Of a stretch of 64,000 nt of DNA, positions 32,877-54,147 are shown one piece after another (the first letter of the stretch is position 1; each line of letters starts with the position of its first letter). The DNA is from Acidobacteriota bacterium (GTDB lineage: Bacteria > Acidobacteriota > CAIWXX01). A program made the position numbers and the translations under genes. Location of the stretch: the NCBI GenBank assembly GCA_040755995.1, contig JBFMAF010000010.1:224001-288000 (forward strand), given 5' to 3'. The notes beneath the pieces were generated by a model. The model had not been told where the DNA came from. It saw only the letters and a program-made list of their open reading frames with translations, and did no database searches.

Positions 32877-34757
32877 ATGTGGTTGGCTGCACTCAGTGGG
32901 ATCATTGTCATGACCGGTCATGCATGGGCAGGCTCGTCGCAGCGCCCCCGATGGAAGGACGTCAGTCCGGACGGTGGCAGCATCTCCGACATCGCAATCG
33001 CTCCCTCCAATCCTAACTACCTGTACACCTCGGCCGGCCACTTGTACCGGAGTCTCGACGGGGCCGCGAGCTGGAAGGCGGTTCCTGGTCAGGAGGGCCT
33101 CTACCACGAAGAGCTGCTGGTCGATCCGGCTAACGCAACCACCCTATACTCTTTGTCCAGCGACTTGTGGAAGAGCACAGACGCGGGCAAGGAGTGGACA
33201 AGAGTGCTGTACAGGGGCCATTTCACCTCGTCCTCGATCTACTGCGCCGCAGTCAGCGACTCGAGCAGCAACATCTTGTACGCCGGGACCGACGGGGACG
33301 GTGTCTTGAAGAGTACCGACGGCGGCACGACGTGGTCGAAGACGGGTCCCGGCATTGGCGATGACTGGGTCTTGACACTCGCCGTCGACCCCCAGAACCC
33401 GGCGGTCGTATTCGCGGGCTCGATGGACCACCTGTTCAAGACATCCGACGGCGGCGCAAGGTGGGCCGACTGCGGCCAAGGGCTCCCTTCAGATCTCATC
33501 TCCGTGACCAGCGTGAGCATTTCGCCTGCGATGCCCGATCTCGTTTACGTGGGATGCTACGACGATGGCCTCTTCAGGAGCACCGACGGCGGTGGTACGT
33601 GGAAGCTCGCCGGTGACTGGCCGCGGCGGGTCGTTTCCGCGCGCCTGACCCTGGACCCGGTCGCAGTGGACATCCTGTACACTGCCACCGACGAGGGCGC
33701 TTTCATGACGACAGCCGGCGGCAAGAAGTGGACGGCCATGCTCGGCTTGCCTGCCACCGAGATCGCGCGAATCGTCATCGATCCCACGGACCAGGCTCTG
33801 CTGTATGCAGGAACAGTATCGGGAGTCTACAAGAGCACGGACCGGGGAGTGACATGGTCATCGGCCAGCACTGGAATCCGAGAGTGGCCCGTCTACTCTG
33901 TCGATGTCGATCCCTCGAACCCCCAAATCGTCTTCGCAGGAACGGATGGGGGTGTCTTCAAGAGCACCGATGCTGGAAGGACCTGGAGGAGCTCGCACGG
34001 CAATTGCCGGACGTTCACTTATGTTGATGCCGTCACGGTCGACCCCAACACTCCGGGAGTCGTCTATGTCTCCGGAGAGTCGGGCACCTACAAGAGCATG
34101 GATGGTGGCGCCACGTGGACGCGGATCTACCAAGAGCTTGTGACGCTGGCGGTGGATTCGAGGACGCCAACAACCCTTTATGGCGGAAATGAGCAGGTGC
34201 TGAAGAGCACGGATGGAGGGTCGACCTGGAAGCCAAGCAGCCACTTCGCGGATGGCTACGTGTCAGCCATCGCGATAGACCCGTTCGCAACCGCCACGAT
34301 CTATGCCGGCAACAGCAGCAGCGGCTGCGTGTGGAAGAGCACCGATGGAGGTTCCGATTGGGGATGTGCACTTGTAGTCAGGGATCCGTACTATTGGTAC
34401 GGGTGGGGCATCACCATCGATCCGGAATCTTCGTCTACAGTCTACGCATATGCTGCAGCCGGGCCGAAGAAGCTCTGGAAGAGCACCGACGGAGGCCAGA
34501 GCTGGACCGGCATGATGAAGGGCCGCGCCGTCTCTTGCCTGCAGGTATCCCCTGCCACGACGGGCGTCCTGTACGCGGGGACCCTGGGCCAGGGCGTGTA
34601 CAAGAGCACGGACGGAGGCTCCACCTGGCGGTCGATGAACGCCGGATTCCTCCGGCCAAGATCGAAATTCGTGTACGCGCTCCGCGCGGGACAAGGTGCC
34701 GGGGATTTCACCTACGCGGCGACGGGCGCTGGTTTGTACCGAGTAGCGGACCAGTAG
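32877..34757 (+). CDS. Secreted BNR/Asp-box repeat beta-propeller protein, second paralog (start uncertain)
   Basis: Signal peptide ending HAWA; about 12 KSTDGGxTW repeats. Confidence 0.88.
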   Translation: MWLAALSGIIVMTGHAWAGSSQRPRWKDVSPDGGSISDIAIAPSNPNYLYTSAGHLYRSLDGAASWKAVPGQEGLYHEELLVDPANATTLYSLSSDLWKSTDAGKEWTRVLYRGHFTSSSIYCAAVSDSSSNILYAGTDGDGVLKSTDGGTTWSKTGPGIGDDWVLTLAVDPQNPAVVFAGSMDHLFKTSDGGARWADCGQGLPSDLISVTSVSISPAMPDLVYVGCYDDGLFRSTDGGGTWKLAGDWPRRVVSARLTLDPVAVDILYTATDEGAFMTTAGGKKWTAMLGLPATEIARIVIDPTDQALLYAGTVSGVYKSTDRGVTWSSASTGIREWPVYSVDVDPSNPQIVFAGTDGGVFKSTDAGRTWRSSHGNCRTFTYVDAVTVDPNTPGVVYVSGESGTYKSMDGGATWTRIYQELVTLAVDSRTPTTLYGGNEQVLKSTDGGSTWKPSSHFADGYVSAIAIDPFATATIYAGNSSSGCVWKSTDGGSDWGCALVVRDPYYWYGWGITIDPESSSTVYAYAAAGPKKLWKSTDGGQSWTGMMKGRAVSCLQVSPATTGVLYAGTLGQGVYKSTDGGSTWRSMNAGFLRPRSKFVYALRAGQGAGDFTYAATGAGLYRVADQ

Positions 34758-35119
34758 TGCCGACCCCCGAGTTCCTTCTAGCCTTCATTCTGAAGGCGGG
34801 GCTGGAAGGCCGCGCCGCCTCGGACCATCCGATTCGGACAGCGTGAGCGTTCCCGCGGCCATGCGCGATCGCCCTTCCACGCATGTACCCACGCCTACGG
34901 CGACGTCAACGGCGACGAATTCAGACAGGATCCGTCAACCCCGGTAGTAGTCATCCGGTTTGCAGGGCCCTTCCGACATGGAGGTAGTGCACCGGGCTGC
35001 GTCTCCCTGCGTCTCCTACTTGACACGCAGCCGGTACTTCGGGTGGAGTAGCTCCTCGACGGCTTGATTGAGATGCCGTCGCCGGCTATCGCGGACGCTT
35101 CTTGTTTGAGGATCTACAC

Positions 35120-35752
35120 ATGGGCGATGAGTTCGAGGCTCTCCTGACGGTCGTGCAGGGGCGCAGGAGCATCCGCCGCTTTCGGCAGGACCCGGTGCCG
35201 CCCGCGCTGCTGCGCCGAGTTGTCGACGCGGCACGATGGGCACCGAGCGCCGGGAATCGGCAGTCGTATCGATTTCTGGCGGTGGAAAACCGCGAAATGA
35301 TCGCGGCGATGGGTCGAGTGGTGACAGAGGAGATCGACAAAACGCTGCCCCTCCTTCGACCGGCATCCCGCGAAGAGGTCGAGGAGTACCTTCGGAGCTT
35401 CACGCGATTCGTCTGCGCGCCTCTCGTGCTTGTGCCGATCTACCGCACGGGTGTCAGCCTTATCGACTCCGCGGCAGACGGCGAGGCTCCCGACCTGATA
35501 CGACGAGCCGATGCCGATGCGCTATGCTCCGTGTCGGCTGCTACGATGTGTCTGCTGCTCGCGGCCCACGCGCTCGGCCTGGGAACCTGCTGGATGACGG
35601 GCCCTCTCCTGGCGGAGTCACCCCTCTGCGCACTGCTGGATGTGCCGAAGGGATGGTCGATCTCTGCGCTGATCCCCATGGGTTACGCAGCGGAGAGCCC
35701 GCCTGCACCACCGCGCCGCGACGCAGACAAGCTTCTCAGGTATTTCCCCTGA
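35120..35752 (+). CDS. Nitroreductase family flavoprotein
   Basis: RRSIRRF, WAPSAGNRQSYRF, LAAHALGLGTCW, LIPMGY. Confidence 0.93.
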   Translation: MGDEFEALLTVVQGRRSIRRFRQDPVPPALLRRVVDAARWAPSAGNRQSYRFLAVENREMIAAMGRVVTEEIDKTLPLLRPASREEVEEYLRSFTRFVCAPLVLVPIYRTGVSLIDSAADGEAPDLIRRADADALCSVSAATMCLLLAAHALGLGTCWMTGPLLAESPLCALLDVPKGWSISALIPMGYAAESPPAPPRRDADKLLRYFP

Positions 35753-35768
35753 TTGCCGGGACCCTGCC

Positions 35769-36233
35769 ATGCGCTATCTCATGATCGACCGGATCGAAGA
35801 ACTCAAGAGGCACTCGTACGCCGTGGGCACGAAGTGCATCACCTTGAGCGACGACTGCTTCGAGCATCACTTCCCCGGGCAGCCCATATACCCCGGGGCG
35901 CTGCTCATCGAGACGATGGCACAGCTCGGCGGCGCGCTGTTGGAGATATCGCTTCGCGATGACATGGGTTATTGTCCGCGCTGCGTCCTGAGCACAGTGA
36001 AGGCCAAGTTCCGCGAGTTCGCCCATCCCGGCGATCTCCTGAGCATCAGGGCGGAGGTCGTCTCGATCCATGACGACTCGGCCATGGTTCGCGGCTCCGT
36101 CATGCGGGCCGATGAAACCATCAGCGAGGCCGAGATGATATTCGTGTTTCTGCGCGTCGAGGACTTGCGTCTCGAATCCTCCCGTCGCGAGCTCATCGAG
36201 CTCCTGACGCGAAAGACAAAGTTCGTCGAATGA
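35769..36233 (+). CDS. 3-hydroxyacyl-ACP dehydratase (FabZ/FabA hotdog fold)
   Basis: YLMIDRI, HFPGQPIYPGALLIETMAQ, KFREFAHPGD. Confidence 0.92.
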   Translation: MRYLMIDRIEELKRHSYAVGTKCITLSDDCFEHHFPGQPIYPGALLIETMAQLGGALLEISLRDDMGYCPRCVLSTVKAKFREFAHPGDLLSIRAEVVSIHDDSAMVRGSVMRADETISEAEMIFVFLRVEDLRLESSRRELIELLTRKTKFVE

Positions 36234-37390
36234 CGGAAGTCGTCATCAGCGGGATCGGCATGCACGGCGCATTCGGCGATTTCGGTGATACGCTCGATGC
36301 GCTCGCACAGGGGCGCACGGCGGTGACCCGGGTCAGCGTAGACGGCGCGCCAGGCTTTCCCGATGTGCTCGGGGCTCCCGCCGGGCCCTACGACCCGGGC
36401 TGCTACGCGCCCGATCGCAAGCTGGTGAAGTACATGAGCCGAACGGCGCAGCTCGCCGTCCTGGCAAGCGGGAGAGCCATCGAGCGCGCTGGGCTCATGG
36501 ATGATCCCCAAAGCCGCGCAGCCATGGCGCTATTCGTGGCGACCGGCTACATAGCGTTCGATCTGTCGAACGTCGCACGCTCGGCCGAGGCGTCGAAGAC
36601 CGCCGACGGCGCGTTCGATCTGGGTCGCATGGGGGAAGAGGGACTGCGCCTCTGCCATCCTCTCATGCCCTTCAAGATGCTGCTCAACATGCCGCTCGGC
36701 CTCGTCTCGATCGCATTCGGCATCCGTGGTGAGAACTTCGTTCTCTACCCGGGCGCCGATCAGGCCGGGATCGCATTCGAAACGGCCTGGCGCGGGATAC
36801 GGAACGGCCGGTTCGTGCGAGCGCTCGTCGGAGGTTGCGGGCAGGGTCTGAGCCCGATCCCCCTGGCGACGCTCATCCGGCAGGACAGAGTCGCCTGCCC
36901 AGACGACACCGGCGGAGGGAGGTTTCCAATCGCCGATCTCGCAGCCTTCGTCATCCTGGAGTCCGCCCAGGCAGCCGAAGATCGTGGCGCGAGAGCCATC
37001 GCGCGGATCGACTCAGTGCGGCTTGCGCGACCACAACGATCCAGTCAGTCGCTGGCCGCCTTCTTCGGCGGCGATCCCGACGGCCATCGACCCGACTCCG
37101 TCGTCGTGACAGGTTGCATCGACTCCGTTGACCTCCAGGTGCTGACTGACGCGGCGGCCTCGGCGTGGCCCGGCACGCCACCTGCTCTGGCCAGTTTCGA
37201 CGACCGCCTCGGTCACTGCGCGGCCGCCTCGTTGCCTCTCGCTCTGGGGCTCGCAGTCGAGAGCATGAGCCGCGGTTCCGTGCCCGTGCAGCAGGACCTG
37301 AGTGCGCCGCGAGACCTCCTGATCCTCTCGGCGGCCGCGGATGAGGCGCTGTTCTCGTGCCGAGTGCGTTCGGTGGAGGCTCCGCAGTGA
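36230..37390 (+). CDS. Non-catalytic ketosynthase homolog (chain-length-factor/KS-beta-like)
   Basis: KS N-terminus VVISGIG, KYMSRTAQLA, LLNMPLGLVSIAFGIRGEN; catalytic Cys position reads YPGADQAG; HGTGT absent. Confidence 0.8.
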   Translation: MTEVVISGIGMHGAFGDFGDTLDALAQGRTAVTRVSVDGAPGFPDVLGAPAGPYDPGCYAPDRKLVKYMSRTAQLAVLASGRAIERAGLMDDPQSRAAMALFVATGYIAFDLSNVARSAEASKTADGAFDLGRMGEEGLRLCHPLMPFKMLLNMPLGLVSIAFGIRGENFVLYPGADQAGIAFETAWRGIRNGRFVRALVGGCGQGLSPIPLATLIRQDRVACPDDTGGGRFPIADLAAFVILESAQAAEDRGARAIARIDSVRLARPQRSSQSLAAFFGGDPDGHRPDSVVVTGCIDSVDLQVLTDAAASAWPGTPPALASFDDRLGHCAAASLPLALGLAVESMSRGSVPVQQDLSAPRDLLILSAAADEALFSCRVRSVEAPQ

Positions 37391-38667
37391 GGCGCGTTGT
37401 GGTGACCGGTCTTGGTGTAGTGTCCCCCATAGGCATCGGCGTCGATGCTTTCTACGACGGTTTGCGACACGCCCGCTCAGGCATCGGCCTGATCCGTTCG
37501 TTCGATGCCAGCACGTTTCCCACTCGCATCGCGGGCGAGGTGACCGGTGACGTGCCGATTCCGGTCTGGGTCGCCGAGCCGCTTGGTTCGGCGATCAATC
37601 GCGACAGAAAGGCCTGCTTCGCTGTGGCTGCGGCTGACCAGGCTCTGACGGAAGCATTCAGCGGCGGTTCAATCGGATCGTCTTACGCGCCCGATCGGAT
37701 AGGGACCTACCTTGGAGCTGGTCTAGAGATCTTCCACCTTGATGACCTTGCGCCCCACGTGAGAGGAGGTGAGCTCGACGGAGCTTCCTTGTTGGCGTCT
37801 TTGCGAGATGCCCCGGCCTTTTCGAGAATGCAGATACCATCGCACCTTGCATCGTCGGCTGTCGCCGCACATGCTCGAGCTGAAGGGCCGCTGGCAGTGA
37901 ACGTCTCGGCGTGTACTGCTGCGGCCCAGGCGATCGGCGAGGCCTTTCTCGCCGTCCAAGACGACGTTCTCGACGCCGCCATTGTGGGAGGCTACGACTC
38001 CATGGTCAACCCGCTCGGCGTGGGAGGGTTCTGCATGCTCGAGGCCCTGTCACGCGCGAACCACCTTGGCGGCGCTGCGTCGAGACCCTTCGATCTGAAT
38101 CGAGACGGCTTCGTGCTCGGCGAAGGGAGCGCGGTGCTGATACTCGAAGAGCTGAATGCCGCGCACAGACGCAACGCGCCGATCTACGCCGAGCTCCTCG
38201 CGTATGCTTCCTCTCTCGACGCGTACCGTGTATCCGATCCGGATCCGTCACTGCAGGGCGCCGTGTCCGCCATGGCGCAGGCGCTGGCACGGGCCCGGCT
38301 CGAACCGTCGGACGTCGACTACATCAATGCGCATGGCACCGGTACTCGCAAGAACGACCCGATGGAGAGCCGGGCGATTCGGCGAGTGTTCGGCAGCGTA
38401 GCCGGCGAGATCCCGGTCAGCTCGACCAAAAGCCAGGTCGGGCATCTCATCGGCGCGGCCGGCGCGGTCGAACTGATCGCCTGCATCTTTGCGCTGACCG
38501 AGGGGATCGTACCGGCCACGATCAACCTGGACACGCCTGACCCGGAATGCGATCTCGACTATGTGCCGAAAAAGCCTCGCGCCAGGACGGTCAGAACGGC
38601 ACTCTCGAATTCTTTCGGCTTCGGAGGCCAGAATGCCTGCATTGCTATCGGGAGGCTCCGTGGTTGA
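37387..38667 (+). CDS. Beta-ketoacyl-ACP synthase (FabF-like KS-alpha)
   Basis: VVVTGLG, SACTAA (Cys), NAHGTGT, KSQVGHLIGAAG, SNSFGFGGQN. Confidence 0.95.
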   Translation: MRRVVVTGLGVVSPIGIGVDAFYDGLRHARSGIGLIRSFDASTFPTRIAGEVTGDVPIPVWVAEPLGSAINRDRKACFAVAAADQALTEAFSGGSIGSSYAPDRIGTYLGAGLEIFHLDDLAPHVRGGELDGASLLASLRDAPAFSRMQIPSHLASSAVAAHARAEGPLAVNVSACTAAAQAIGEAFLAVQDDVLDAAIVGGYDSMVNPLGVGGFCMLEALSRANHLGGAASRPFDLNRDGFVLGEGSAVLILEELNAAHRRNAPIYAELLAYASSLDAYRVSDPDPSLQGAVSAMAQALARARLEPSDVDYINAHGTGTRKNDPMESRAIRRVFGSVAGEIPVSSTKSQVGHLIGAAGAVELIACIFALTEGIVPATINLDTPDPECDLDYVPKKPRARTVRTALSNSFGFGGQNACIAIGRLRG

Positions 38668-38722
38668 GAGGGCGGGGCATCACGGCGATCGGGAATGGGT
38701 ACGGGTATGAGGTGAGCTGGAG

Positions 38723-39109
38723 ATGAGTACTGTAGAACGTGTCACGAAGTGTCTGGGTGAGGTGCTGGCTCTCGATCCTAAGACCATCACCGCGGATGCC
38801 CGAGTGATCGACGACCTGGGGGCCGATTCGCTGGATCTCGTGGAGTTGATGTTTCTGCTCGAGCGGGAGTTCTCGATCCGGCTGGACAAGCGGGATCTGA
38901 GCCTGAGCGCTCAGCTCGGGCTGACGGAGCAAGAGACGCACCATGAGGAGGTGCTCACGCCGAAGGCCATGAGCCTGCTGCGCGAACGCTACCCCCTCGC
39001 AGCCGATCGGCTGCGAGACGGCATGACCCGCAAGGATCTGGCCGTGCTCCTTACGGTCGGTGAGATCGCCTGGTCGATCGACCGCAAGCTGGCCAACGCG
39101 GGGGTGTAG
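38723..39109 (+). CDS. Acyl carrier protein with internal insertion (128 aa)
   Basis: DDLGADSLDLVELMFLLEREFSI phosphopantetheine motif; terminal LTVGEI helix after a ~45-aa insert. Confidence 0.9.
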   Translation: MSTVERVTKCLGEVLALDPKTITADARVIDDLGADSLDLVELMFLLEREFSIRLDKRDLSLSAQLGLTEQETHHEEVLTPKAMSLLRERYPLAADRLRDGMTRKDLAVLLTVGEIAWSIDRKLANAGV

Positions 39110-39143
39110 CCCACGGGTTTCCGACAGAGATGCGAGGAACACA

Positions 39144-39878
39144 ATGCTGGAGGGAATGACCGGTCTGGTCACGGGTGGAACGGGCGCGATCGGCGGAGCC
39201 ATTTGCCGGGCGCTGGGCCGATACGGAATGGACGTGGCATTTGCGTATAGAAGACGCGAGGAGGAGGCGCAGAGGCTCGCGGCCGAGATCGAGGCGCTCG
39301 GTCGGAGGAGCCTCTGCGGCGCAGTAGACGGCCGGGACGGCAGGTCGGTCCATGCGTTCGTCGAGCTGGTCGAGGCGCGATTCGACCACATCGACCTTCT
39401 GGTCAACAATCTCGGTATCACGCAGGTCATGCCCTTCGCGTTGATCGAAGAAGAGGACTGGGACGAGATGATGCAGGTCAACCTGAAGAGTCTCTTCCTG
39501 TTCACCAAGGCCGTGCTGCGCGGCATGGTGCGCCGGCGGCAGGGGGTGATTCTGAACATGGGATCGATCGCCGGCCACAGGATGCTCGATGTGCCGGTAC
39601 ACTACGCCACATCGAAGGCCGCTGTCACGGGATTCACGACTTCGCTGGCGAAGGAGGTTTGCCGCTACGGCATACGCGTGAACGAGATCTGTCCCGGGTT
39701 GGTCGACGCCGGGATAGGCACGAACGTCTCCGAGCGGCAGCTCGCGCTGTACAACCAGTTCTGTTCGCTCGCCAGACCCGGCAAACCGGCGGAAGTCGCC
39801 GAGCTGGTGGCGTTTCTGGCGTCCGATCGCGCTTCCTACATCAACGCTCAGCAGATGGTCGTAGACGGAGGCTTGTGA
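39144..39878 (+). CDS. 3-oxoacyl-ACP reductase (FabG-like SDR)
   Basis: TGGTGAIG, LVNNLG, YATSKAA, ASYINAQQMVVDGG. Confidence 0.9.
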   Translation: MLEGMTGLVTGGTGAIGGAICRALGRYGMDVAFAYRRREEEAQRLAAEIEALGRRSLCGAVDGRDGRSVHAFVELVEARFDHIDLLVNNLGITQVMPFALIEEEDWDEMMQVNLKSLFLFTKAVLRGMVRRRQGVILNMGSIAGHRMLDVPVHYATSKAAVTGFTTSLAKEVCRYGIRVNEICPGLVDAGIGTNVSERQLALYNQFCSLARPGKPAEVAELVAFLASDRASYINAQQMVVDGGL

Positions 39879-41335
39879 TGAGCTGTGTCGCAGGCGGGGA
39901 GCCGGTCACGTTCCTTTCCGCTTCCCGCGGAATGTGCCGTGCGTGCCGGCGCATGGTAAGGGTCCGCTATGTGGCCAGAGGACACCGTGTGTTTCTGGAG
40001 CGCACATGCCCAGAGCACGGAGTAGGCAGGGCGCTCGTTGCCGAAAGCGTCGGGTGGTACCTGGCCGCGATGCAGCGAGGCTCGTCGAGCCGGCCTCCGC
40101 CGCGCAGCTTCCCCAAGCGCGCCGAATGCCCCCATGACTGCGGGCCGTGCTCCTTTCACGCCCAGGCCTGCCACCTTCCCGTCGTCTCGATAACCAATGC
40201 ATGCGATCTTCGCTGCCCGATCTGCTTCACCTACAATCGGGCCGATCGCACATACTTCATGTCTCGCGACGAGTTCGTCCGCCAGCTGGACTTCGTGATC
40301 GAAGCATCAGGAGGAGTCGACCTCATCAACATCACGGGCGGTGAACCAACGTCACACCCACAACTGTTCGATCTGATCGAGGCTGCCAGGCGGACCGGGA
40401 TCGGGCGCGTCACCCTGAACACGAATGGACTCAGGCTCGCGCGCGAGCTGGACATGGTGGAGCGCCTCGCGGAGCTTGGCGCATACGTAGTGCTGTCGCT
40501 CGACACGCTCGATCCGCGGATCAGCTTTCGAATGCACGGGCGCGACATCGTGGCGGAGAAGCTGCGCGCACTCGAGCTGCTTGACCGGTTCGGCGTGCAG
40601 ACAACGCTGCTCATGGTGCTCGCAGGCGGCGTGAACGAGGGCGAGCTTGGGCGGCTCATCGACATCCTGCTCGAGCGCAGCTTCATCCGGAGTCTTACGA
40701 TTCAGACAATGACGTACACGGGACGGGGTGGCGGCACGTTCCGGCCGAGGGAACACATTCCCGTCGACGGCGTTACTCGCCGCGTCGAGGAAGCCAGCGG
40801 GGGCCGGATTCGACAGAGGGACTTCCTGCCTTTACCCTCGGCGCATCCTCTCTGTTACAGCGTGGCCTATTTCGTCGCGGACGGCCGGGGCGGTGCCCGG
40901 TCGCTTCTCGGCGTGCTCGATCGGAGCCTGCTGGAGCGCCACCTGACCCGCGGATACCTGCTCGATGCGGGAGCCGAGCTCGAGGAGGCGCTGAGGCTGG
41001 CGATCGACCGGGTGTGGAGCGAAGGTGACGATCCGGGCTTGCTCAAGACAATGAAGGATGTGCTCGGCCGCGTGTTTCCTCCAGGAGAGACTCTCGATCG
41101 GCACGAGCGGCAGCGCCGGGCCGAACAGGCGGTCAAGACCGTGTATGTTCACTCCCACATGGACGAGGACACATACGAGATCGGCAGGGCCATGCGGTGC
41201 CCGGATCAGGTGCCCGTCGACGGGGAGAAGCTCATCGGAGCATGCAACTACAACCTGTTCTACAGGCAGAATGACGAACGTTTCTGGGTGGAGGCAGGCG
41301 TCGTGGGAAAGGCGGAGGTCCAAGGGCCGCCGTGA
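39878..41335 (+). CDS. Radical SAM enzyme, Tes/GDGT-MAS (MJ0619)-like architecture, paralog A
   Basis: CRAC...CPEHG, CPHDCGPCSFH, CDLRCPIC, GGEP, HPLC, HMD...RCP...GACNYNLFYR; TGATG coupling to the SDR. Confidence 0.85.
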   Translation: MSCVAGGEPVTFLSASRGMCRACRRMVRVRYVARGHRVFLERTCPEHGVGRALVAESVGWYLAAMQRGSSSRPPPRSFPKRAECPHDCGPCSFHAQACHLPVVSITNACDLRCPICFTYNRADRTYFMSRDEFVRQLDFVIEASGGVDLINITGGEPTSHPQLFDLIEAARRTGIGRVTLNTNGLRLARELDMVERLAELGAYVVLSLDTLDPRISFRMHGRDIVAEKLRALELLDRFGVQTTLLMVLAGGVNEGELGRLIDILLERSFIRSLTIQTMTYTGRGGGTFRPREHIPVDGVTRRVEEASGGRIRQRDFLPLPSAHPLCYSVAYFVADGRGGARSLLGVLDRSLLERHLTRGYLLDAGAELEEALRLAIDRVWSEGDDPGLLKTMKDVLGRVFPPGETLDRHERQRRAEQAVKTVYVHSHMDEDTYEIGRAMRCPDQVPVDGEKLIGACNYNLFYRQNDERFWVEAGVVGKAEVQGPP

Positions 41336-42756
41336 GCACTCGGGAAATGATGCAGACCGATCTACACGCCGACTCCGCCTCATCCTGCCTCGATGCCACG
41401 CTCGCCCTCTGCAACGCTTGCGGCCGCCTCTGCGACGCACAGATCCGCCTCGATCAGGAACGGGTCGTGCTGGTGAAGTGGTGTCCGGAACACGGCATCA
41501 CCAGGTCTCTGGTCAGCTCCGACAAGAGCTGGTATCTTCGGTCCCTCTCGTACGTGAAGCCCGGGACGCGCCCGCTGGCACGCGCATTCGATGGGTGCAC
41601 TGCGTGCCCGGGCTCCTGCGGTCTCTGTCCCGATCACCAGCAACACACCTGCGTCCCCATTGTCGAGATCACGGGCTCCTGCAATCTGCACTGCCCGATC
41701 TGCCTCGTTTCGGGGAGGGTCGGCAAGGAGCTCACGGTGGAAGAGGTCCGATCAGTCCTCGATCATCTCATCAGATACGAGGGGAAGATCAACATGCTGA
41801 CGCTCAGCGGTGGCGAGCCGACGGTCCACCCTGAGCTCACTGGCATCCTCGATCTTTGCCGGCGGCCGGAGATCGGGCTGGTCTCGGTTTCGACCAACGG
41901 CATCGCGCTCGACCGCGACCCTGACCTTATCCGGAAGATCCGGGACCGCGACGCGGTCATCTCGCTTCAATTTGACGGGTTCGCGGAGGAAGTGTACGGA
42001 TCGTTGCGCGGGAGAGGCGATCTTGCAGCGCTGAAACAACGGGTCGTCGAGAGAATCTTGGACGCCGGTGCACGGTTGTCCCTCACGGTGACCTTGGGGC
42101 GAGGTGTCAACGAAGCGGAGCTGCCGCGTATCCTGGACCTGTTCTTTGCCACCGACCTTGTACTGAGCCTCATGCTGCAGCCTCTCAGCTACGGAGCCTC
42201 CTGCGACGATCCGCTGAACGTCCTGACGATTCCCGATGTAGTCCGCCTCGTGGCCCAGGCATCCAGGGGCAGGCTCACGCGCGATGACTTCACGCCTCTG
42301 CCCTGCTCCCACCCGAGTTGTTTCGCGCTGACCTATCTGTTGAAGCTGGACGGCGGCGCGCTTGTGTCGCTGCCATCCCTCATCGACGTCGAGTCCTACA
42401 TCGATATCATAAAGAACCAGGCGCTCTTCGGCACGGACATGCAGACGCTTGAACGCATCAAGGACGCCCTCTACTCCCTGTGGTCGTCGGACGGCATGCT
42501 GCCGCATCGCGACGCGGTCCTCGGCCGAGTCAAGCGGTTGCTCAATGACATCTCGGCGTTGGGCCGGGCTGGATCTCACCGCGATCTGATCGACCTGGGC
42601 GTGTCGAACGTGAAGTCGATCTTCATCCACCATTTCATGGACCGCGCAACTTTCGATCTGAGCCGCGCGATCAAGTGCTGCAACCACTATGCGATGCCGG
42701 ACGGGAGGCTGTTGCCGGCCTGCGTACGCAACAACCTGACGGCAATTGGATCATGA
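41332..42756 (+). CDS. Radical SAM enzyme, Tes/GDGT-MAS (MJ0619)-like architecture, paralog B
   Basis: CNAC...CPEHG, CPGSCGLCPDHQQHTC, CNLHCPIC, GGEP, LQFDG, PCSHPSC, HFMDRATFDLSRAIKCCNHYAMPDGRLLPAC. Confidence 0.88.
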   Translation: MSTREMMQTDLHADSASSCLDATLALCNACGRLCDAQIRLDQERVVLVKWCPEHGITRSLVSSDKSWYLRSLSYVKPGTRPLARAFDGCTACPGSCGLCPDHQQHTCVPIVEITGSCNLHCPICLVSGRVGKELTVEEVRSVLDHLIRYEGKINMLTLSGGEPTVHPELTGILDLCRRPEIGLVSVSTNGIALDRDPDLIRKIRDRDAVISLQFDGFAEEVYGSLRGRGDLAALKQRVVERILDAGARLSLTVTLGRGVNEAELPRILDLFFATDLVLSLMLQPLSYGASCDDPLNVLTIPDVVRLVAQASRGRLTRDDFTPLPCSHPSCFALTYLLKLDGGALVSLPSLIDVESYIDIIKNQALFGTDMQTLERIKDALYSLWSSDGMLPHRDAVLGRVKRLLNDISALGRAGSHRDLIDLGVSNVKSIFIHHFMDRATFDLSRAIKCCNHYAMPDGRLLPACVRNNLTAIGS

Positions 42757-43799
42757 TCCGGTCGATCTGCAACTGCCTGGCGCACTTGGTTGCCGGACGG
42801 CCCGACGGCTGGTATCCGCTTCTCGGCGTCTACTACCTCACCTACGCCTGCGACATGAGGTGCACTTACTGCAGTGACGGCAGCGGCATCCCGTACTACC
42901 GCCTGCCGGATGAGCCCGTCTCGGGTGCAGGAGCAACCGAGATCATGCGGACCATGCGACGGTGGACGGACTACCTGGTGATCACAGGAGGCGAGCCGCT
43001 ACGGCACCCCGATTTCGTCGACGTGCTATCCGGCCTTCCCGCCCTTCGCTTCGACGGCGTCGTTCTAACGACCAACGGTTGCGACGTGGCCCCGTATCTT
43101 CAACTGATCAACGCCTCCGTGCGATACCTGGTCTTCTCCCTGGACACTCTGAACGAGGATCGCGCCGGGCACATCTACGGGCGGCGCCACGTGCTTGACC
43201 GAATACTCAGCAACATCGAATCTGCCGCAAGCGTCCCGGAGCGGCGGTACGAGATCATCATCTCCGCGGTCGCAACACCGGACAATCTCGAGGACCTGCC
43301 GGAGCTCTACCAGTACTGCCGCCGGCGAGGCTTCCGCTTCGCCCTGTGCCCGCAGCTGCTGGGGGTCAAGCCGCATCCGGCTCTGCGTGATAACCCCGGA
43401 TACCGGAGAGTCTTCGATATGCTCATCTCCGAGAAGCGGCGCGGCGGCCGAATCCATGGTAGTGTTCCATACCTGGAGCATATGCGCGACCTGCAACAAT
43501 TCTCATGCCGCCCAAGCACCGTTCTCGCCGTGTCGCCCGCCGGTAACGTTTTCTATCCGTGCCTGGAGATCGGCCACGCGGCCGGCTCCCTCGCCGATGA
43601 GCCCGACATCCACACCATTCGCCGGCAGGCACGAGAGAGGTTCGGCGAGGAACCACGGTGCGACAATCGCTGCCATTCGGCGTGCGCTCTCGGTTTCTCC
43701 TTGCTCCTGAACCGCCCTTGGTCGATTGTCCACGAGGCCGTTCTCGCCGCGAAGTCCACGTTGCGGCGCACGCTGAGGGGATACTCCAGTGTCTGCTAA
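42753..43799 (+). CDS. Radical SAM protein with C-terminal SPASM/twitch-like Cys cluster
   Basis: CDMRCTYC, GGEP, FSLD; C-terminal FSC...YPC...CDNRCHSAC; ATGA overlap. Confidence 0.88.
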   Translation: MIRSICNCLAHLVAGRPDGWYPLLGVYYLTYACDMRCTYCSDGSGIPYYRLPDEPVSGAGATEIMRTMRRWTDYLVITGGEPLRHPDFVDVLSGLPALRFDGVVLTTNGCDVAPYLQLINASVRYLVFSLDTLNEDRAGHIYGRRHVLDRILSNIESAASVPERRYEIIISAVATPDNLEDLPELYQYCRRRGFRFALCPQLLGVKPHPALRDNPGYRRVFDMLISEKRRGGRIHGSVPYLEHMRDLQQFSCRPSTVLAVSPAGNVFYPCLEIGHAAGSLADEPDIHTIRRQARERFGEEPRCDNRCHSACALGFSLLLNRPWSIVHEAVLAAKSTLRRTLRGYSSVC

Positions 43800-45084
43800 G
43801 AAACGCTCCGTTGCCGCACTTGTCTGCACGGCCTGGCTTGGCGCCGGCGCGTCCATCGCAACTTCTTCCGCTCTGGCATGGATCGTGGGCGTCGAGGAGA
43901 TCTCCCCATCCGAGCTCGACCGGCTTCTCTCGTCGTCAAACCCGCCCGTCGTCGTCGACGTCACGACACGGGAAGAGTTCCTCCGTGAACATCTGCGCGG
44001 ATCCGTCAACGCCCCGCTGGGCGAGCTCGACTCCCAGCGAGGCGCCTTCGAGGCGTATCAGAACACGACCGTGGTGACTGTGTGCCAGGGAGGCGTGCGT
44101 TCGGCTCTGGCAGCGTCGAAGCTGGAAGGGCAGGGTCTGAAGCACGTGCTCAGCCTTTCGGGAGGCAAGCTCGCCTGGTCCAGTCAGGGGCTGCCACTCG
44201 AGTCCGGCGGGCCGCCCCCCTTCGCGGCAAGTGCACGCAGAGGCCCCTCAATCACGCTGTCGTTGGTGGAACAGACCGTGTCGGTGATTTCGGCGTTCGC
44301 CGTCAAGCCGGCCTACATGCTGCTCAGTCTGATCGCCGTGCTGCTAATGCACCGGCGCAGATCGCGAGACATGCTCTTGATTCGTGCGGGCCTTGCCGTG
44401 TTCTTCGCCGGCGAGCTCTTCTGCGCAATCAACTATCTGTGCACCGGCGGCGCCAACTTCTGGCTCGACATGCTCCACGGCATCGGCATGGTGGCGATGG
44501 GAGTGCTGGTTCCATGGGGAGCGTTCATATTGGTCGACGAGCGCGTGATCGGGCTGACGCAGCCCGACGCCGGCTGCTCGTTGAGGCGCTTCTGCGCGCG
44601 TTGCTGGAAGCAGGTTGAGGCTCCGTGTGCCGCGCACCGCATCTTCAAGCTCGTTGCGCCGGCCATGGCAGTCGTCTCGCTGATGCCGTGGACTGCGCCG
44701 ATCCGCGAGCTCAGCGAGGTCGGGACCGTCTTCGGGACGCCGGTGGCCTACTCGTACTCGCTGCCGCTGCAGCTCGCCGACTTCCGATTCTATCCGGCTG
44801 CAGGCGCCCTTTGCCTGGCAGTCGCTTCAGCAATGCTTTGCGGCGGCAGACGATCCATGAGATCTGCTCAGCCCTTCTTCTTCGCAGGCTTCGGGTTCAT
44901 GGCGTTTTCTCTGTTCCGTTTCCTACTGCTCAGCGCGTACCGCGAGACCCCCGTCTGGTCCGACTTCTGGGAGGAGCTCACGGAGCTCCTTTTCACGGTG
45001 ATCTCCATCGCCTTGCTCTGGATCTATCGGGAGCAGCTCGGCCTAGGCAGGGCAGCCCGTGTGACACCGTCCGCCGAGGAGTGA
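43789..45084 (+). CDS. Rhodanese domain fused to a multi-pass membrane domain
   Basis: VVDVTTREEFLREHLRGSVNAP, CQGGVRS active-site loop, LSGGKLAW; about 7 TM segments with a CSLRRFCARCWKQVEAPC loop. Confidence 0.85.
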   Translation: MSAKKRSVAALVCTAWLGAGASIATSSALAWIVGVEEISPSELDRLLSSSNPPVVVDVTTREEFLREHLRGSVNAPLGELDSQRGAFEAYQNTTVVTVCQGGVRSALAASKLEGQGLKHVLSLSGGKLAWSSQGLPLESGGPPPFAASARRGPSITLSLVEQTVSVISAFAVKPAYMLLSLIAVLLMHRRRSRDMLLIRAGLAVFFAGELFCAINYLCTGGANFWLDMLHGIGMVAMGVLVPWGAFILVDERVIGLTQPDAGCSLRRFCARCWKQVEAPCAAHRIFKLVAPAMAVVSLMPWTAPIRELSEVGTVFGTPVAYSYSLPLQLADFRFYPAAGALCLAVASAMLCGGRRSMRSAQPFFFAGFGFMAFSLFRFLLLSAYRETPVWSDFWEELTELLFTVISIALLWIYREQLGLGRAARVTPSAEE

Positions 45085-46118
45085 CGGGAGTGGGTGCCCC
45101 GGATCTGATCAGGCTTCTGACGTTCTTTCGTCGGCTGAATCTGCCTCGCTGGCCGCGCCGGGCCGCTGCACGCATTGTCGAAGAGCACGATCTCTCATCG
45201 CCGTCGGGCGCGCTCTACGACCACTACCTGCCGCGCAGCACGGTGCGATCCCGGATCGTGGCCCTTCACGGCGTCACGCGCAAGGGCAAGGACGACCCGA
45301 GGCTCGTCCGCTTCAGCCGCTCCCTCGCCTCCGCCGGGGTCGAGTGCTTTGTGCCGACACTCAGGGGCCTTGCCGAATTCGACTGGCGCGGCTCCGATAT
45401 CGACGACCTCGTGGCGCTTGTCCTTGGTGTCGCGGGCGGGGCGCGGTCGCTCGGGGTCGTCGGCTTCAGTTTCGGAGGCAGTTACGCATTGGTCGCCGCT
45501 GCTCGTTCGGAGATCAGCCAGACTCTCCGGTTCGTCCTCGCGGTAGGCGCATACCATTCGCTCGTCGATCTTTACGAACGCGTCGCGGCGGTTGGTGCAG
45601 ATGGAAGATTCGCCGGCAGTCGCGGAGACATGGATGACTGGATATACCTGCATCTCGTCGCGGCTCGGCGCCTGGCGCCCGAGCTGCGGCTCGACCCAGC
45701 AACACTCGTCGAGATGGATTCGCTGCTTGACCGCTACTGCCACTCCAGCTCGCTACCCGAGAAGACCTCCTTCTACGAGCGTCATCTCGAAGGCCGGAAT
45801 CTCTTGCAGCAGGATTGGGCGATGGCCGATCGCGCGGTGCTCGAACGCCTTTCGCCGGCGACCCGGCTGCGCAGCGTGGCATGTCCGGTTCGCCTGCTGC
45901 ACGATCCTGAGGACGCGATCGTTCCGGCCGATCACGCCCACAAGATCGCGGCCGAGCTCGGCCGGTGGGACCGCTCATGCAGGCTTGTCGTCACACCGTT
46001 GCTCCACCACGTCTCCCTGTCGAGCGCCCTGATGACGGCCGATTGGGTACGTATCGCGGCACTGTTTCTGCCGGTGATGGCAATGCGGCCCGGGAAGGAC
46101 GAAAGTGGGGCGGACTGA
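45081..46118 (+). CDS. Alpha/beta hydrolase (possible thioesterase/acyltransferase)
   Basis: ALHG, GFSFGG nucleophile elbow, HDPEDAIVP, LLHHV; GTGA overlap. Confidence 0.8.
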   Translation: MTGVGAPDLIRLLTFFRRLNLPRWPRRAAARIVEEHDLSSPSGALYDHYLPRSTVRSRIVALHGVTRKGKDDPRLVRFSRSLASAGVECFVPTLRGLAEFDWRGSDIDDLVALVLGVAGGARSLGVVGFSFGGSYALVAAARSEISQTLRFVLAVGAYHSLVDLYERVAAVGADGRFAGSRGDMDDWIYLHLVAARRLAPELRLDPATLVEMDSLLDRYCHSSSLPEKTSFYERHLEGRNLLQQDWAMADRAVLERLSPATRLRSVACPVRLLHDPEDAIVPADHAHKIAAELGRWDRSCRLVVTPLLHHVSLSSALMTADWVRIAALFLPVMAMRPGKDESGAD

Positions 46119-47154
46119 GCTCGGCGAGCGCCTCAAGCGCGTGCGCTATGCCGCGAGCTTCCTGCGGAGGGGCATGGTACACGTCAATCTACAGGTGCTC
46201 TACCAGTGCAACTTCCGTTGCCGGATCTGCGACTTCTGGAAGCGGCGCTATCAGGAGATGCCGCAACTCGGCGCCGATCAGGCGCGCCTCATCGCGGACA
46301 AGCTCGACGAGTTGGGGCCGCAGATCGTGTCGATCGGCGGGGGCGAGCCGCTCATGCACCCGGAGATAGTCACGATTGCGAGGATACTGTCGCGGCGCCA
46401 TCTGCCTGTCATGATTACGAACGGATGGTTCGTCACGCCGGAGCTCGCCCGGAGCCTCTTCGAGGCAGGGATGTACGAGGTAAGCGTGTCGGTAGACTAC
46501 GCTGAGGCCGGCAGACATGACGCTCAGCGTGGGTGCAAGGGCGCATACGACGGCGCTATCGCCGCACTGGAGATTCTGCAAGCCAACCGGACACGGCCGT
46601 ACCAGAGGGTACACATGATCTCGGTGGCCATGGCAGACAACCTCGATGAAATCGAGCCCCTGATCCGGCTTTGCGGGAAGATGGGCATCACCTACCTCGT
46701 GACCCTGTACTCTGACGGCCGAGGGCAGAGGGACCTTTCCTGTGTTGCAGGAGACGCGAGTGCGCGCTTGCTGGCCCTCAAGGAACGCTACCCTGGATTC
46801 GTATCGCTGCGAGGCTATCTGGGGCGATTCAATGGTGCCGCTCCGGCCGCCCGACACGACCGTTGCTTCGCAGGCCTCAATCTGATGAACATAGACTGTC
46901 GGGGAAGCGTCTCCCTCTGCATCGACCGCGCGGATGAAGTCGTCGGCAACCTGCTCGAGGAGACCACGGAGGCGATCCGCCGCAAGCTGCTCGCGAGATA
47001 TCGCGACAACCAATGCCGCTCATGCTGGACGTCTTGCCGTGGTTCGATCGAGACCCTGATGTACGGCGGAGACCGGTTGGCGAACCTGCGTGACCTCTAC
47101 GGAATGACGAAGCCGGTCCCACTAGCCCCTGAGGCCGTGAGGCGACGGGGTTGA
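46105..47154 (+). CDS. Radical SAM protein with C-terminal SPASM/twitch-like Cys cluster
   Basis: CNFRCRIC, GGGEP, VSVD; CFAG...SLCID...GNL...CRSCWTSC. Confidence 0.9.
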   Translation: MGRTELGERLKRVRYAASFLRRGMVHVNLQVLYQCNFRCRICDFWKRRYQEMPQLGADQARLIADKLDELGPQIVSIGGGEPLMHPEIVTIARILSRRHLPVMITNGWFVTPELARSLFEAGMYEVSVSVDYAEAGRHDAQRGCKGAYDGAIAALEILQANRTRPYQRVHMISVAMADNLDEIEPLIRLCGKMGITYLVTLYSDGRGQRDLSCVAGDASARLLALKERYPGFVSLRGYLGRFNGAAPAARHDRCFAGLNLMNIDCRGSVSLCIDRADEVVGNLLEETTEAIRRKLLARYRDNQCRSCWTSCRGSIETLMYGGDRLANLRDLYGMTKPVPLAPEAVRRRG

Positions 47155-47421
47155 CGAACCGCGCTGGCCTCGACCGGCGCGGCGTCGCACATCGCCCGCA
47201 GGGCGCGCGCGTGTCGTCCTGAAGGGACACCCTGTCACAGAACACAGACACCGAGACAGCGCCCACTGACGCGGTGCGTCGTCTGTTGGCAGGGTTTCCA
47301 GGCCACTCTGAACCCGCGCGATTCTGGCACGTATATTGAATGTGGCAGCCTGGTCCTGGCTGTCCCGGGGACGCGAGATGGTCCTGGAGGTTGTTCCGGA
47401 GTAGCACATGAGAGGAGACGT

Positions 47422-49215
47422 ATGAGAAGTCGACACATCGCCCGCCTGACCACACAAGTCTTTGCAATCCTGTTCATAGCAGCCCCGGTTCACGCGGCGA
47501 CGCCCTTCGCACGCGCCGCCGGTGAGCTCGATTTCGTCCGGCGCTTGCGGGACGCGACGCCCCCGGCCGCGCGCCCTGCCCTGACGAATCTGGTCGAGAT
47601 GGTGCGGATGGATGACGGTGTGCGGTTGCACACGTCGGTCTATCTCGCCTCGCAGTCGGGGCGGTACCCAGCTATCCTGGTCCGGACGCCGTACAACGAC
47701 GCCACCGACGGCCTTGATGACTACGGCTACTCCGGCATCGCCGACTACTACTGCCCGCGCGGGTACGCCGTGGTGATCCAGACAATCCGCGGCAAGTACG
47801 CATCGGAGGGGACGTACCGTCTCATGTCGCGCGGCGAGATCGACGACGGCTACGCCGCAATTGAGTGGATCTCACGACAGGCCTGGTGCGACGGCAACGT
47901 GGCTGTCATGGGCGTGTCGCACGACGGGTTCGATGCACTTGCCGCCGGCATCCGCAACCCCAGCGGTCTCAAGCTGGTCATATCCGGCGGCGGCCCCGCG
48001 GACTTGCGGACCGACGCATTCATGCAGAAGGGGACCCTCGGCACGAGCCTGCTCGACTACATCGACTTCATGTTCACCGAGACCGGCCAGCCGTATGACG
48101 ATCTCTTCTTCCGCCTCATGGAGACGCTGGGGCTGCCGGAGCCGCGGCTTCTCGCCTACGACACGCTTGTGAGCGGCAAGGAGCTGCCGGCGTGGGACGA
48201 GCACATCAAGGCCATGAGCCGTGTCAACAGTGACTACTGGCAGAAGCGCCGGATTCGCGACCGGCTGCACGAGTGCAAGCTGCCGATAGTCCAGTTCGCG
48301 GGACTCTACAGCGACGGCGATATGCCCGATGTCCTGCGCAATTTCGAGTACCTCGAGGAGAGAGGCATCCAGGGCCGCTTGATCCTCGGCTGGTGGGCGC
48401 ACGGGTCCTCCGGCCCCTACGGCGATGTCGAGGGGTACACTCCACCCGATGTGCTCAAGCGATACAATGCTCTGCTCGACTACTACCTCAAAGGACTCAG
48501 CAGCCCGATTCTCAACGAGAAGCGGATCCAGGTCTTTGCGGCGGGCGAGGGCAAGTTCGTGCCATCCAACACGTGGCCTCAGCTTCCTGGATACACATCG
48601 CGCGAGTTCTACTTCGCGCGTGGCTCGACGCAGGCCGGCAAGCTGCTGAGCGCGCCACGATCGGAAAGCAAACCCAATGTGTCGTACGCTTATGACCCTA
48701 AGGTGCTTCCGACGATTCTCTACGATCCGGGGCCGATCCGAAACCACACCGACCAGCTGGCGTTTCTGAGTGATCCCATGCCCGCAGACACGCCGGTATG
48801 CGGCAAGGCGAGCCTGACGCTGTACGTGTCGAGCACGGCCAGGGACACCGACTTCTATGCGGCCGCATTCGTGCGCCAGACTGACGGGACGGATCGTGAG
48901 CTCGGGCCGGGACCGGGCCTTCTCCAGGCCCGCCAGCGGGACGGCGATTACGCGCGGCCGAAGATGCTCGTGCCGGGCCAGGTGTACGCCGTGACGATCG
49001 AGCCGCCGTTCATCTCTGGCATCGTCAAGAAAGGCGAACGCCTCGGGGTCGTGGTCTTCAGCAACGCCTTTCCGGTGGTCATCCGAAACGCCAACAGCGG
49101 AAAGCCGATAGGCTCCGACAAGGCCTTCATCACCGCGACCCAGAAATTCTACCTCGGGAAGCTCTACCCGTCGAAGCTGACCCTGAGCTGCCGGTCCCCA
49201 TCGACCGGCGGGTAG
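47422..49215 (+). CDS. Secreted CocE/NonD (peptidase S15) family hydrolase
   Basis: Signal peptide; MDDGVRL, RTPY, RGKYASEG, WCDGNV, GVSHDG, GWWAH, SSTARDTDF. Confidence 0.9.
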   Translation: MRSRHIARLTTQVFAILFIAAPVHAATPFARAAGELDFVRRLRDATPPAARPALTNLVEMVRMDDGVRLHTSVYLASQSGRYPAILVRTPYNDATDGLDDYGYSGIADYYCPRGYAVVIQTIRGKYASEGTYRLMSRGEIDDGYAAIEWISRQAWCDGNVAVMGVSHDGFDALAAGIRNPSGLKLVISGGGPADLRTDAFMQKGTLGTSLLDYIDFMFTETGQPYDDLFFRLMETLGLPEPRLLAYDTLVSGKELPAWDEHIKAMSRVNSDYWQKRRIRDRLHECKLPIVQFAGLYSDGDMPDVLRNFEYLEERGIQGRLILGWWAHGSSGPYGDVEGYTPPDVLKRYNALLDYYLKGLSSPILNEKRIQVFAAGEGKFVPSNTWPQLPGYTSREFYFARGSTQAGKLLSAPRSESKPNVSYAYDPKVLPTILYDPGPIRNHTDQLAFLSDPMPADTPVCGKASLTLYVSSTARDTDFYAAAFVRQTDGTDRELGPGPGLLQARQRDGDYARPKMLVPGQVYAVTIEPPFISGIVKKGERLGVVVFSNAFPVVIRNANSGKPIGSDKAFITATQKFYLGKLYPSKLTLSCRSPSTGG

Positions 49216-51479: not shown

Positions 51480-51647
51480 CACCCGCGGGCCTGCATAGCG
51501 CGCGCGTTGCCGAGCCGGACGCAGGGGGCCCGGGCCTGTCAGGAGCGCGGCGATAACGGCACGCATGCAAACCGCGCCGGGGCCTTGAGGCTTAATGGAC
51601 GGCCCGGCGGCGCCGATCTGGTGCGCTGGTCGCCATCGAATCGGCCC

Positions 51648-54072: not shown

Positions 54073-54147
54073 ATTTCAGATCTCAGATTGCAGATTGCAG
54101 ATTTGGGGCACTTGAAATGCGGAATGCGGAGTGCGGAATGCGGAATG
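54073..54147. repeat. Two adjacent heptamer arrays between pdxS and pdxT
   Basis: ATTTCAG ATCTCAG ATTGCAG ATTGCAG (54073-54100), then (AATGCGG) about x4.5 (54116-54147). Confidence 0.9.

Follow-up and report, generated by a model that had tools for sequence, protein, structure and literature searches.

A widely shared, acyl-carrier-protein-dependent gene cluster around a paired subfamily of tetraether-synthase-like radical SAM enzymes

Introduction

What would a bacterium make with a row of chain-building genes of the fatty acid type that leads straight into two relatives of tetraether synthase (Tes), the enzyme that joins phytanyl tails? The question is raised by twelve genes, all on the + strand between positions 35102/35120 and 47154 of a 64,000-nucleotide stretch of an Acidobacteriota genome (contig JBFMAF010000010.1), the whole of which we call the window. 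A preliminary description, made from the sequence alone, had taken them for a candidate new lipid pathway in which a chain is built on its own carrier protein and then tailored by radical chemistry.

Comparison across genomes establishes that this is a real, widely shared and uncharacterised cluster, that it depends on an acyl carrier protein (ACP), and that it is organised around a paired Tes-like subfamily, whose two members in the window we call TesA and TesB. With a confidence only slightly better than even, which applies to the explanation as a whole, we read the twelve genes as a single operon that serves a specialised, ACP-dependent pathway, in which a dedicated line of ketosynthase (KS), chain-length-factor (CLF)-like partner and ACP would build a chain and TesA and TesB would tailor it by radical C-H chemistry.

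Results

TesA (39878..41335, + strand; 485 residues) and TesB (41332..42756, + strand; 474 residues) each combine PF23545, a zinc ribbon of the HMPTM type, with the radical S-adenosylmethionine (SAM) domain PF04055. Both starts are tied to the gene before: the TesA ATG shares one base with the stop codon of the FabG-like gene, and TesB begins in a GTGA overlap with the stop of TesA. Against the solved Tes structure 7TOL, TesB aligns over almost its full length (residues 21-469, E 3.1e-59) and TesA over residues 18-332 (E 7e-40), and both have the four-domain Tes layout of zinc ribbon or rubredoxin-like domain, N-terminal cluster, radical SAM core and C-terminal cluster. In an alignment of 18 TesA-type, 31 TesB-type and 50 canonical rows, the four groups of metal motifs are kept in 18/18, 31/31 and 49-50/50 rows, respectively. 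These are, in TesB numbering, site 1 (C27/C30/C51/H54, an N-terminal CxxC...CxxH whose last column is taken by His or Cys, apart from two rows with Asp and one with Tyr), the N-terminal cluster motif CX3CX2CX2H (C92/C96/C99/H102), the radical SAM triad CX3CX2C (C117/C121/C124) and a C-terminal set of C330/C449/C464 with M436. Tes has four metal centres, one Fe and three [4Fe-4S] clusters (PMC13459092, section 2.1), and the conserved columns appear to fit these in count and order.

In phylogenetic trees, the pair stands apart from canonical Tes. We built a FastTree phylogeny of 103 Tes-family proteins, taken from the locus scan described below, the window, two other Tes-family genes of the host genome and one genome of the same phylum. 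In this unrooted tree, the proteins linked to fatty acid synthesis (FAS) genes group in a single clade (51 rows, support 100, branch 0.47), while the Tes of Nitrososphaera, homologues from Chloroflexota and Acidobacteriota and the host's own two other genes, on contigs C31 and C33, lie on the other side. Within the clade, TesA forms a group of 20 rows that includes two 'third-type' proteins (support 98), and TesB falls into two groups of 16 and 15 rows. A quick IQ-TREE run on 48 rows, likewise unrooted, gives TesA a support of 100 and separates the FAS-linked group from the rest with 99. TesB orthologues, at 53-67% identity, take all of the best 120 matches listed. The Tes architecture and motif order that the preliminary description had seen in both radical SAM proteins thus hold up in the structural matches, the Pfam domains and the conserved columns; as to the family placement it had proposed to settle by tree, both are full-length Tes homologues, but they lie outside the archaeal and canonical bacterial Tes clade and below the cut-off of the Tes family model NF045702.

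Two long-branched groups were seen beside these lineages. A third Tes-like gene is present at L019:6565-8442 and L053:12371-13786, in a clade next to TesA with support 100. A further Tes-family clade, also with support 100 and neither canonical nor FAS-linked, joins L010 (G040:C58; open frame of about 650 residues) and L078 (Flavobacteriales-labelled; about 470 residues).

Scanning one genome per species gave at least 80 loci, with 592 of the 600 matched stretches listed being relatives. We sorted 78 of these loci by similarity to TesA or TesB into 30 of the FAS-linked type and 48 canonical ones, with thresholds that were set after seeing the tree and one locus, L044, placed by hand from its tree position; L070 (no long open reading frame match) and L078 (odd clade) were left out. 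A KS or FabG gene lies near the Tes-like genes in 25 of the 30 FAS-linked-type loci listed, versus none of the 48 canonical Tes loci listed, which carry not one of the ten other operon genes; in the five clade loci that lack both KS and FabG, the contig breaks off near the match. The co-conservation of FAS and radical SAM genes on which the preliminary description had staked its proposal is therefore found. FabG is the commonest gene beside the Tes-like genes (24/30), followed by KS (16/30), the CLF-like, FabZ-like, nitroreductase and SPASM radical SAM genes (14/30 each), ACP (13/30), the membrane protein (10/30), a relative of the third radical SAM protein at 120 bits or more (5/30) and the hydrolase (3/30). 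Gene order is shuffled between loci, with FabG-TesA-TesB and FabZ-CLF-KS(-SDR)-nitroreductase-ACP as persistent blocks, SDR denoting a short-chain dehydrogenase/reductase. Since the same gene set recurs around Tes-like relatives in other genomes, the twelve-gene arrangement of the window is not a product of chance.

By the submitters' labels in the record titles, the 30 clade loci span ten bacterial phyla and one Thermoplasmatota archaeon. The archaeal locus, L044, from a Thermoplasmatota-labelled metagenome-assembled genome (MAG), carries at about 5000-12700 bacterial-type FabZ, KS, nitroreductase, ACP and FabG genes with a Tes-like gene and the hydrolase, and could reflect gene transfer or a binning error. 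Several genes that are missing from the window operon recur in related loci: a class III aminotransferase in 10, a protein of about 200 residues of no known family in 9, a hexapeptide acetyltransferase-like gene in 7 and a flavin monooxygenase in 4. The class III aminotransferase marks one cluster sub-type (for example L029:8177-9541, - strand, and L017:5610-7115); the one such enzyme tested, that of L029, has the prodigiosin enzyme PigE as its best match (393 bits, cut-off 850). The sequence of these variants hints at an amine or alkaloid-like product.

The two Tes-like proteins also appear to work as a pair. Their subtrees branch alike, with a Myxococcota-labelled trio beside the window and then Verrucomicrobiota/Planctomycetota, Muiribacteriota and Syntrophomonadaceae rows, which indicates that TesA and TesB were inherited as a unit; both types are present in 17 of the 30 clade loci. 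A predicted TesA-TesB complex scored an ipSAE of 0.84 (runs 0.81, 0.84 and 0.85), whereas the highest score among three controls was 0.00. The mark that the pair cleared is one that 116 of 157 solved complexes and 2 of 215 mismatched pairs attain, and close cousins of a real partner pass it as well. The runs share at least 76% of contacts, partner pLDDT (predicted local distance difference test) values are at least 81, and in the model the two chains meet through their N-terminal domains and, on each chain, a C-terminal segment. On this modelling, TesA and TesB probably form a heterodimer.

Upstream of the pair lie the genes that would make its substrate; gene families throughout the operon were assigned by Pfam and NCBIfam profiles. 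The active KS (37387..38667, + strand) is a FabF-like condensing enzyme of 426 residues from the GTG at 37387, in a frame open from 37357. It matches TIGR03150 with 421 bits and NF005589 with 401 bits, above the cut-off of 387, its Cys/His/His/Lys residues are invariant in 17/17 orthologues, and its closest solved relatives are canonical housekeeping FabF proteins (1e5m, 9e-93). Directly before it, the CLF-like ketosynthase homologue (36230..37390, + strand; 386 residues) matches only the N-terminal KS domain (34 bits). It lacks Cys in the aligned active-site column in 13/13 orthologues (L026 has one in the adjacent column), and 10/13 have a Gln two residues past that column, in a region where the alignment is uncertain. 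An active KS with its Cys-His-His set adjoining a Cys-less homologue is, judged by sequence, the KS/CLF pattern. The ACP (38723..39109, + strand; 128 residues; PF00550, 40.5 bits) carries a DSL serine motif and a C-terminal extension of about 50 residues, which is homologous and alignable across 16 orthologues and thereby marks it as a dedicated carrier.

Two genes would process the beta-carbon. The FabG-like SDR (39144..39878, + strand; 244 residues from ATG) scores 212 bits against TIGR01830, under the cut-off of 298. The FabZ-like 3-hydroxyacyl-ACP dehydratase (35769..36233, + strand; 154 residues; PF07977, 60.8 bits) scores 88 bits against TIGR01750, under the cut-off of 155, and its stop codon is overlapped by 4 nt by the start of the CLF-like gene. 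Canonical FabZ structures outscore the anammox amxFabZ as matches to this protein; more generally, orthology of the FabZ, KS or ACP to anammox proteins was considered and rejected, as canonical proteins score better. At the head of the operon, a nitroreductase-family flavoprotein (35120..35752, + strand; 210 residues from ATG, in a frame open already from a TTG at 35102; PF00881, 106.8 bits) has as its closest solved relatives uncharacterised nitroreductases, a BluB-like protein and albonoursin synthase. The last of these is a C-C dehydrogenase, and because it is among the relatives, a role of the flavoprotein as desaturase or ene-reductase is plausible.

Downstream of TesB, a third radical SAM protein with a Cys-rich C terminus follows (42753..43799, + strand; 348 residues; PF04055, 53.7 bits). 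Pfam finds no SPASM domain in it and a sub-threshold match to DUF3463; its best solved relatives are SkfB and MoaA (E about 1e-4). The last gene encodes a radical SAM/SPASM protein (46105..47154, + strand; 349 residues; PF04055, 64.2 bits; PF13186 SPASM, 24.0 bits versus 21.5). Between them lie an alpha/beta hydrolase and a rhodanese-membrane protein. The hydrolase (45081..46118, + strand; 345 residues from GTG) just passes the PF12697 cut-off (26.4 versus 26.3 bits), and with a GFSFG nucleophile elbow read from its translation it is a possible thioesterase.

The rhodanese-membrane protein (43789..45084, + strand; 431 residues; PF00581, 52.8 bits) consists of an N-terminal hydrophobic segment resembling a signal peptide, a rhodanese domain and seven predicted helices. 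Its rhodanese fold matches solved rhodaneses with Z 17 and has the loop CQGGVRS, and a fold search with the whole protein returned matches filled by rhodaneses. The seven-helix membrane domain (window positions 44254-45084; model pLDDT 86.7) gave a best Z of 8.8 when searched by itself, to G-protein-coupled-receptor-like and rhodopsin bundles, which is under the level meaningful for helical bundles. It belongs to an unnamed family that is also found without rhodanese, an atlas search having returned only unnamed clusters, and 5 of 9 orthologues of the protein align over this domain alone. Four invariant Cys in a loop (CX5CX2CX7C) could, from their spacing in the sequence, bind a metal or an Fe-S cluster; a WEE.TE motif in the last helix is conserved as well.

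Taken together, the twelve open reading frames recovered by listing and translation leave little space between them. With the start codons that we chose, which are inferred and on which the counts depend, 8 of the 11 junctions overlap by 1-14 nt and the remaining three are gaps of 16, 55 and 34 nt; overlaps of the ATGA, GTGA or TGATG type join FabZ to CLF, CLF to KS, FabG to TesA, TesA to TesB and TesB to the third radical SAM gene. A scan of 34600-47600 for promoters and terminators was uninformative, giving 2 promoter-like sites versus 1.9 expected and 1 terminator-like site versus 5.7 expected, and a search for sequencing runs covering 36230-44000, RNA included, listed none. The flanks are unrelated, with BNR/sortilin-type proteins upstream and an S15 peptidase, then an Mrp/ApbC carrier, downstream. 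The preliminary description was accurate in describing twelve co-oriented, mostly overlapping genes, and the families it named all match the profile calls except for the SPASM domain that it had given the third radical SAM protein.

Elsewhere in the window we noticed a sulfatase fused to TPR repeats (24506-26764), an ARPP-1 domain protein (28934-30010) and a MocR-type GntR-aminotransferase regulator (51507-53171) near a PdxT-like glutaminase (54117-54797), which together suggest control of vitamin B6 synthesis.

The host genome (7.7 Mb, 99.8% complete) holds four Tes-family genes in all. Besides the pair, these are a canonical Tes at G000:C31:37682-39148 (L001:1384-3021), with 563 bits above the cut-off of 450, and a divergent gene at G000:C33:9792-11207 (L002:1453-3027, - strand) with 341 bits; no gene in the genome exceeds the cut-off of 490 for the family TrsS. 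The C31 gene adjoins a gene for an ABC substrate-binding protein of the phosphonate-binding type. In the wider phylum, among 401 genomes sampled, 40 contain a Tes-family match of any kind at E <=1e-40; just three besides the host reach 340 bits, and one of these shows TesA-TesB-SPASM radical SAM. The two genomes of the host's own family give no match at E <=1e-40. The closest orthologues listed come from Myxococcota-labelled MAGs (59-65% identity), while a housekeeping protein of the window has an Acidobacteria-labelled best named match at 74% identity, a weak hint given the mixed labels of its other matches. The patchy distribution, the Myxococcota-labelled orthologues and the Acidobacteria-labelled housekeeping match together suggest, at the level of sequence, that the operon was acquired horizontally.

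Discussion

How might such a cluster work? In the pathway that we favour, the FabF-like KS and its Cys-less CLF-like partner would extend a malonyl-derived chain on the dedicated long ACP, and the FabG-like reductase and FabZ-like dehydratase would act on its beta-carbon. Since the operon encodes no enoyl reductase, double bonds or hydroxyl groups may remain in the chain; another possibility is that reduction or desaturation falls to the nitroreductase-family flavoprotein. The hydrophobic chain would then pass to TesA and TesB, probably acting as a heterodimer, where, by analogy to Tes, SAM-derived radicals would take hydrogen from unactivated carbons and the first radical would be held on the C-terminal Fe-S cluster until a C-C bond is closed, giving a ring or a cross-link. 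From homology, C-C coupling is the most likely chemistry of the pair. The two smaller radical SAM proteins could tailor the product further, the alpha/beta hydrolase could release it, and the seven-helix membrane protein could handle it at the membrane. The order of these steps and the nature of the substrate are, like the bond itself, what we infer from the gene set. The product is probably an undescribed lipid-like metabolite of an accessory, horizontally spread cluster.

Several observations weigh against this reading. On the model NF045702, a Tes equivalog with a cut-off of 450 for which the C31 gene of the same genome served as positive control (563.3 bits), TesA and TesB reach 177.5 and 224.8 bits; the top-scoring NCBIfam model for both is instead TrsS (NF045646; 205.0 and 235.7 bits, cut-off 490), which scores slightly above Tes. 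The missed Tes cut-off and the slightly higher TrsS scores mean that the reaction of the pair may differ from that of Tes. TesA-type proteins have lost C107, C325, C450 and H105, which canonical Tes and TesB all keep, and a canonical CxxxxC pair is missing from both lineages. TesB is recovered as monophyletic with a support of just 45 in the quick IQ-TREE run. Because TesA and TesB are paralogues, the success of their complex model may reflect a shared homodimer mode, a concern to which the passing of close cousins adds, and clusters with a single Tes-like gene within 10 kb (L029, L047) indicate that the heterodimer is not obligatory everywhere. As for chain building, none of the twelve genes encodes FabD, FabH, an enoyl reductase or a phosphopantetheinyl transferase, so that genes elsewhere must be relied upon, and the window lacks both the second FabG-like SDR (after KS) and the second FabA-like gene (before TesA) of several orthologous clusters.

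Among other explanations, the one that survives best is that the operon makes a precursor of a membrane-spanning lipid, of the diabolic-acid or branched glycerol dialkyl glycerol tetraether (brGDGT) type, with TesA and TesB joining two acyl tails as Tes joins phytanyl; this was the first product that the preliminary description had named. The pair are Tes homologues with all four metal sites conserved, bacterial Tes homologues are proposed as brGDGT makers in the main texts of Zeng 2022 (PMC8941075) and of a Black Sea study (PMC11868695), and the long ACP recalls AcpM, a carrier of very long chains that is among its matches. Against this, a canonical Tes above the family cut-off is already encoded elsewhere in the genome, and neither the window nor the annotated related loci link a glycerol-3-phosphate acyltransferase, ether-lipid or head-group gene to the cluster. 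The cluster also occurs patchily, with no match in the two same-family genomes and only three others of 401 at 340 bits, its sister variants have genes for a PigE-like aminotransferase and for a flavin monooxygenase, as is typical of small-molecule pathways, and an enoyl reductase for saturated chains is missing. We consider this origin unlikely, and the product is probably not a bulk membrane-spanning lipid.

A second explanation, less likely again, is that TesA and TesB insert sulfur in the manner of LipA or BioB, with the C-S cluster adduct of Tes as the end point and the rhodanese serving sulfur traffic. The course of the Tes reaction does include an adduct of substrate and sulfur at the C-terminal cluster (PMC13459092, section 2.1), and a rhodanese domain with a CQGGVRS loop is fused to a conserved membrane protein of the cluster. 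However, the orthologues that align over the membrane domain only (5/9) indicate that the rhodanese is not core to the system, and the clusters of the aminotransferase type have no rhodanese gene. The signal-peptide-like N terminus suggests, moreover, that the rhodanese may be periplasmic and thus away from the cytoplasmic radical SAM proteins.

It is very improbable that the operon encodes an equivalent of anammox Cluster I, for a ladderane-type or polyene-cyclising pathway, despite a shared architecture of special ACP, FabZ variant, KS with inactive KS partner and radical SAM proteins (as Cluster I is outlined in bioRxiv 10.64898/2026.05.19.726425 and in section 5 of PMC13459092). The missing enoyl reductase would allow a polyene intermediate, but none of the four radical SAM proteins has a B12-binding domain and a phytoene-dehydrogenase homologue is absent, the Pfam matches of the twelve operon proteins including no B12-binding or amine-oxidase/PDH families. 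The FabZ-like protein is also nearer to canonical 3d6x (9e-19) than to 7qv0/8ay* (1e-12 to 1e-9), and the KS nearer to 1e5m (9e-93) than to 9s5h_B (5e-74); both of these more distant sets we take, from their names and unchecked, to be anammox proteins. Least credible of all is that FAS-type and radical SAM genes of separate pathways are accidental neighbours, for although the genes change places from locus to locus, and in L012 and L013 the two blocks lie apart or point in opposite directions, the content stays together (25/30 versus 0/48 loci) and genes of the window overlap from stop to start.

What would follow if the favoured ACP-dependent pathway is right? A bolder version of it, which we advance tentatively and at clearly less than even confidence, is that TesA and TesB together form a new C-C ligase of the radical SAM type, with two subunits, acting on chains made on a carrier protein and not on finished glycerolipids, giving a new class of ring-closed or tail-linked lipid-like metabolites from a cassette passed horizontally among lineages that carry the labels of ten or more bacterial phyla and of one archaeal phylum. 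The main texts of the two environmental studies (PMC8941075, PMC11868695) regard Tes homologues of bacteria as potential makers of brGDGTs, and no mention of the gene context of bacterial Tes was found in them. If this version is true, many of the 'bacterial Tes homologues' that are counted as environmental brGDGT markers belong to an unrelated pathway. Splitting a large, paired subfamily tied to KS/CLF and ACP off the bacterial Tes pool, as is done here, changes how palaeoclimate-proxy and metagenome matches are read. At 12 kb, the cluster is also compact and opens a direct way to a new reaction of radical SAM enzymes, on substrates of the acyl-ACP type, and probably to a lipid-like scaffold that is new as well.

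Comparison with known systems

The literature that we searched, whose coverage excluded most subscription journals, holds no characterised match to the cluster, in line with the preliminary description's remark that no characterised pathway has this combination. Within that literature, tetraether synthase and acyl carrier protein together turned up only a review of lipid-modifying radical SAM enzymes (PMC13459092), which covers Tes and ladderane biosynthesis and, in its outline, also Mss, Gms and Grs; its sections 2.1, 4 and 5 describe no KS/ACP-linked Tes relatives. The paper on Mss does not mention an ACP, and no NCBIfam match named Mss was obtained among the twelve operon proteins.

Of the single enzymes, Tes/GDGT-MAS of M. 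jannaschii (7TOL, 7TOM) is the natural reference, with which TesA and TesB share the zinc-ribbon N terminus, the N-terminal cluster motif, the radical SAM motif and the C-terminal Cys with Met. Unlike Tes, they reach only about half of the NF045702 cut-off, fall into a clade of their own, are co-inherited as an A/B pair and are linked to KS and ACP. TrsS is the top NCBIfam model for both, yet they remain under its cut-off, and neither has an in-frame stop that would suggest selenocysteine; TrsS itself is listed among selenoproteins, with no function given in that listing (PMC13188914).

The chain-building half resembles the KS-CLF systems of type II polyketide synthases, such as those for ishigamide (Iga11/12), aryl polyenes and cispentacin (AmcF/G), which likewise combine a KS and Cys-less partner with ACP, ketoreductase and dehydratase and no enoyl reductase. 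The operon proteins give weak sub-threshold matches to AmcE, AmcF, AmcB and FlxB, all far under the cut-offs, and, unlike the highly reducing type II systems, the KS of the operon is closest to housekeeping FabF. We know of no Tes-like radical SAM enzyme in the ishigamide, aryl polyene or cispentacin systems.

In architecture, the nearest counterpart is anammox Cluster I (KustE3603-3608), a putative ladderane cluster, with its special ACP, FabZ variant, KS with dead KS partner and radical SAM proteins. As the cluster is set out in the preprint (bioRxiv 10.64898/2026.05.19.726425), it holds amxACP, amxFabZ, a KS/CLF-like FabF pair, a phytoene-dehydrogenase homologue and a B12 radical SAM protein. 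The operon described here differs in that its radical SAM enzymes are of another family and have no B12-binding domain, and in that it has no phytoene-dehydrogenase homologue. The product link of Cluster I is also unproven (in the same preprint). Given the parallel in architecture, solving either this operon or the anammox ladderane cluster may help with the other.

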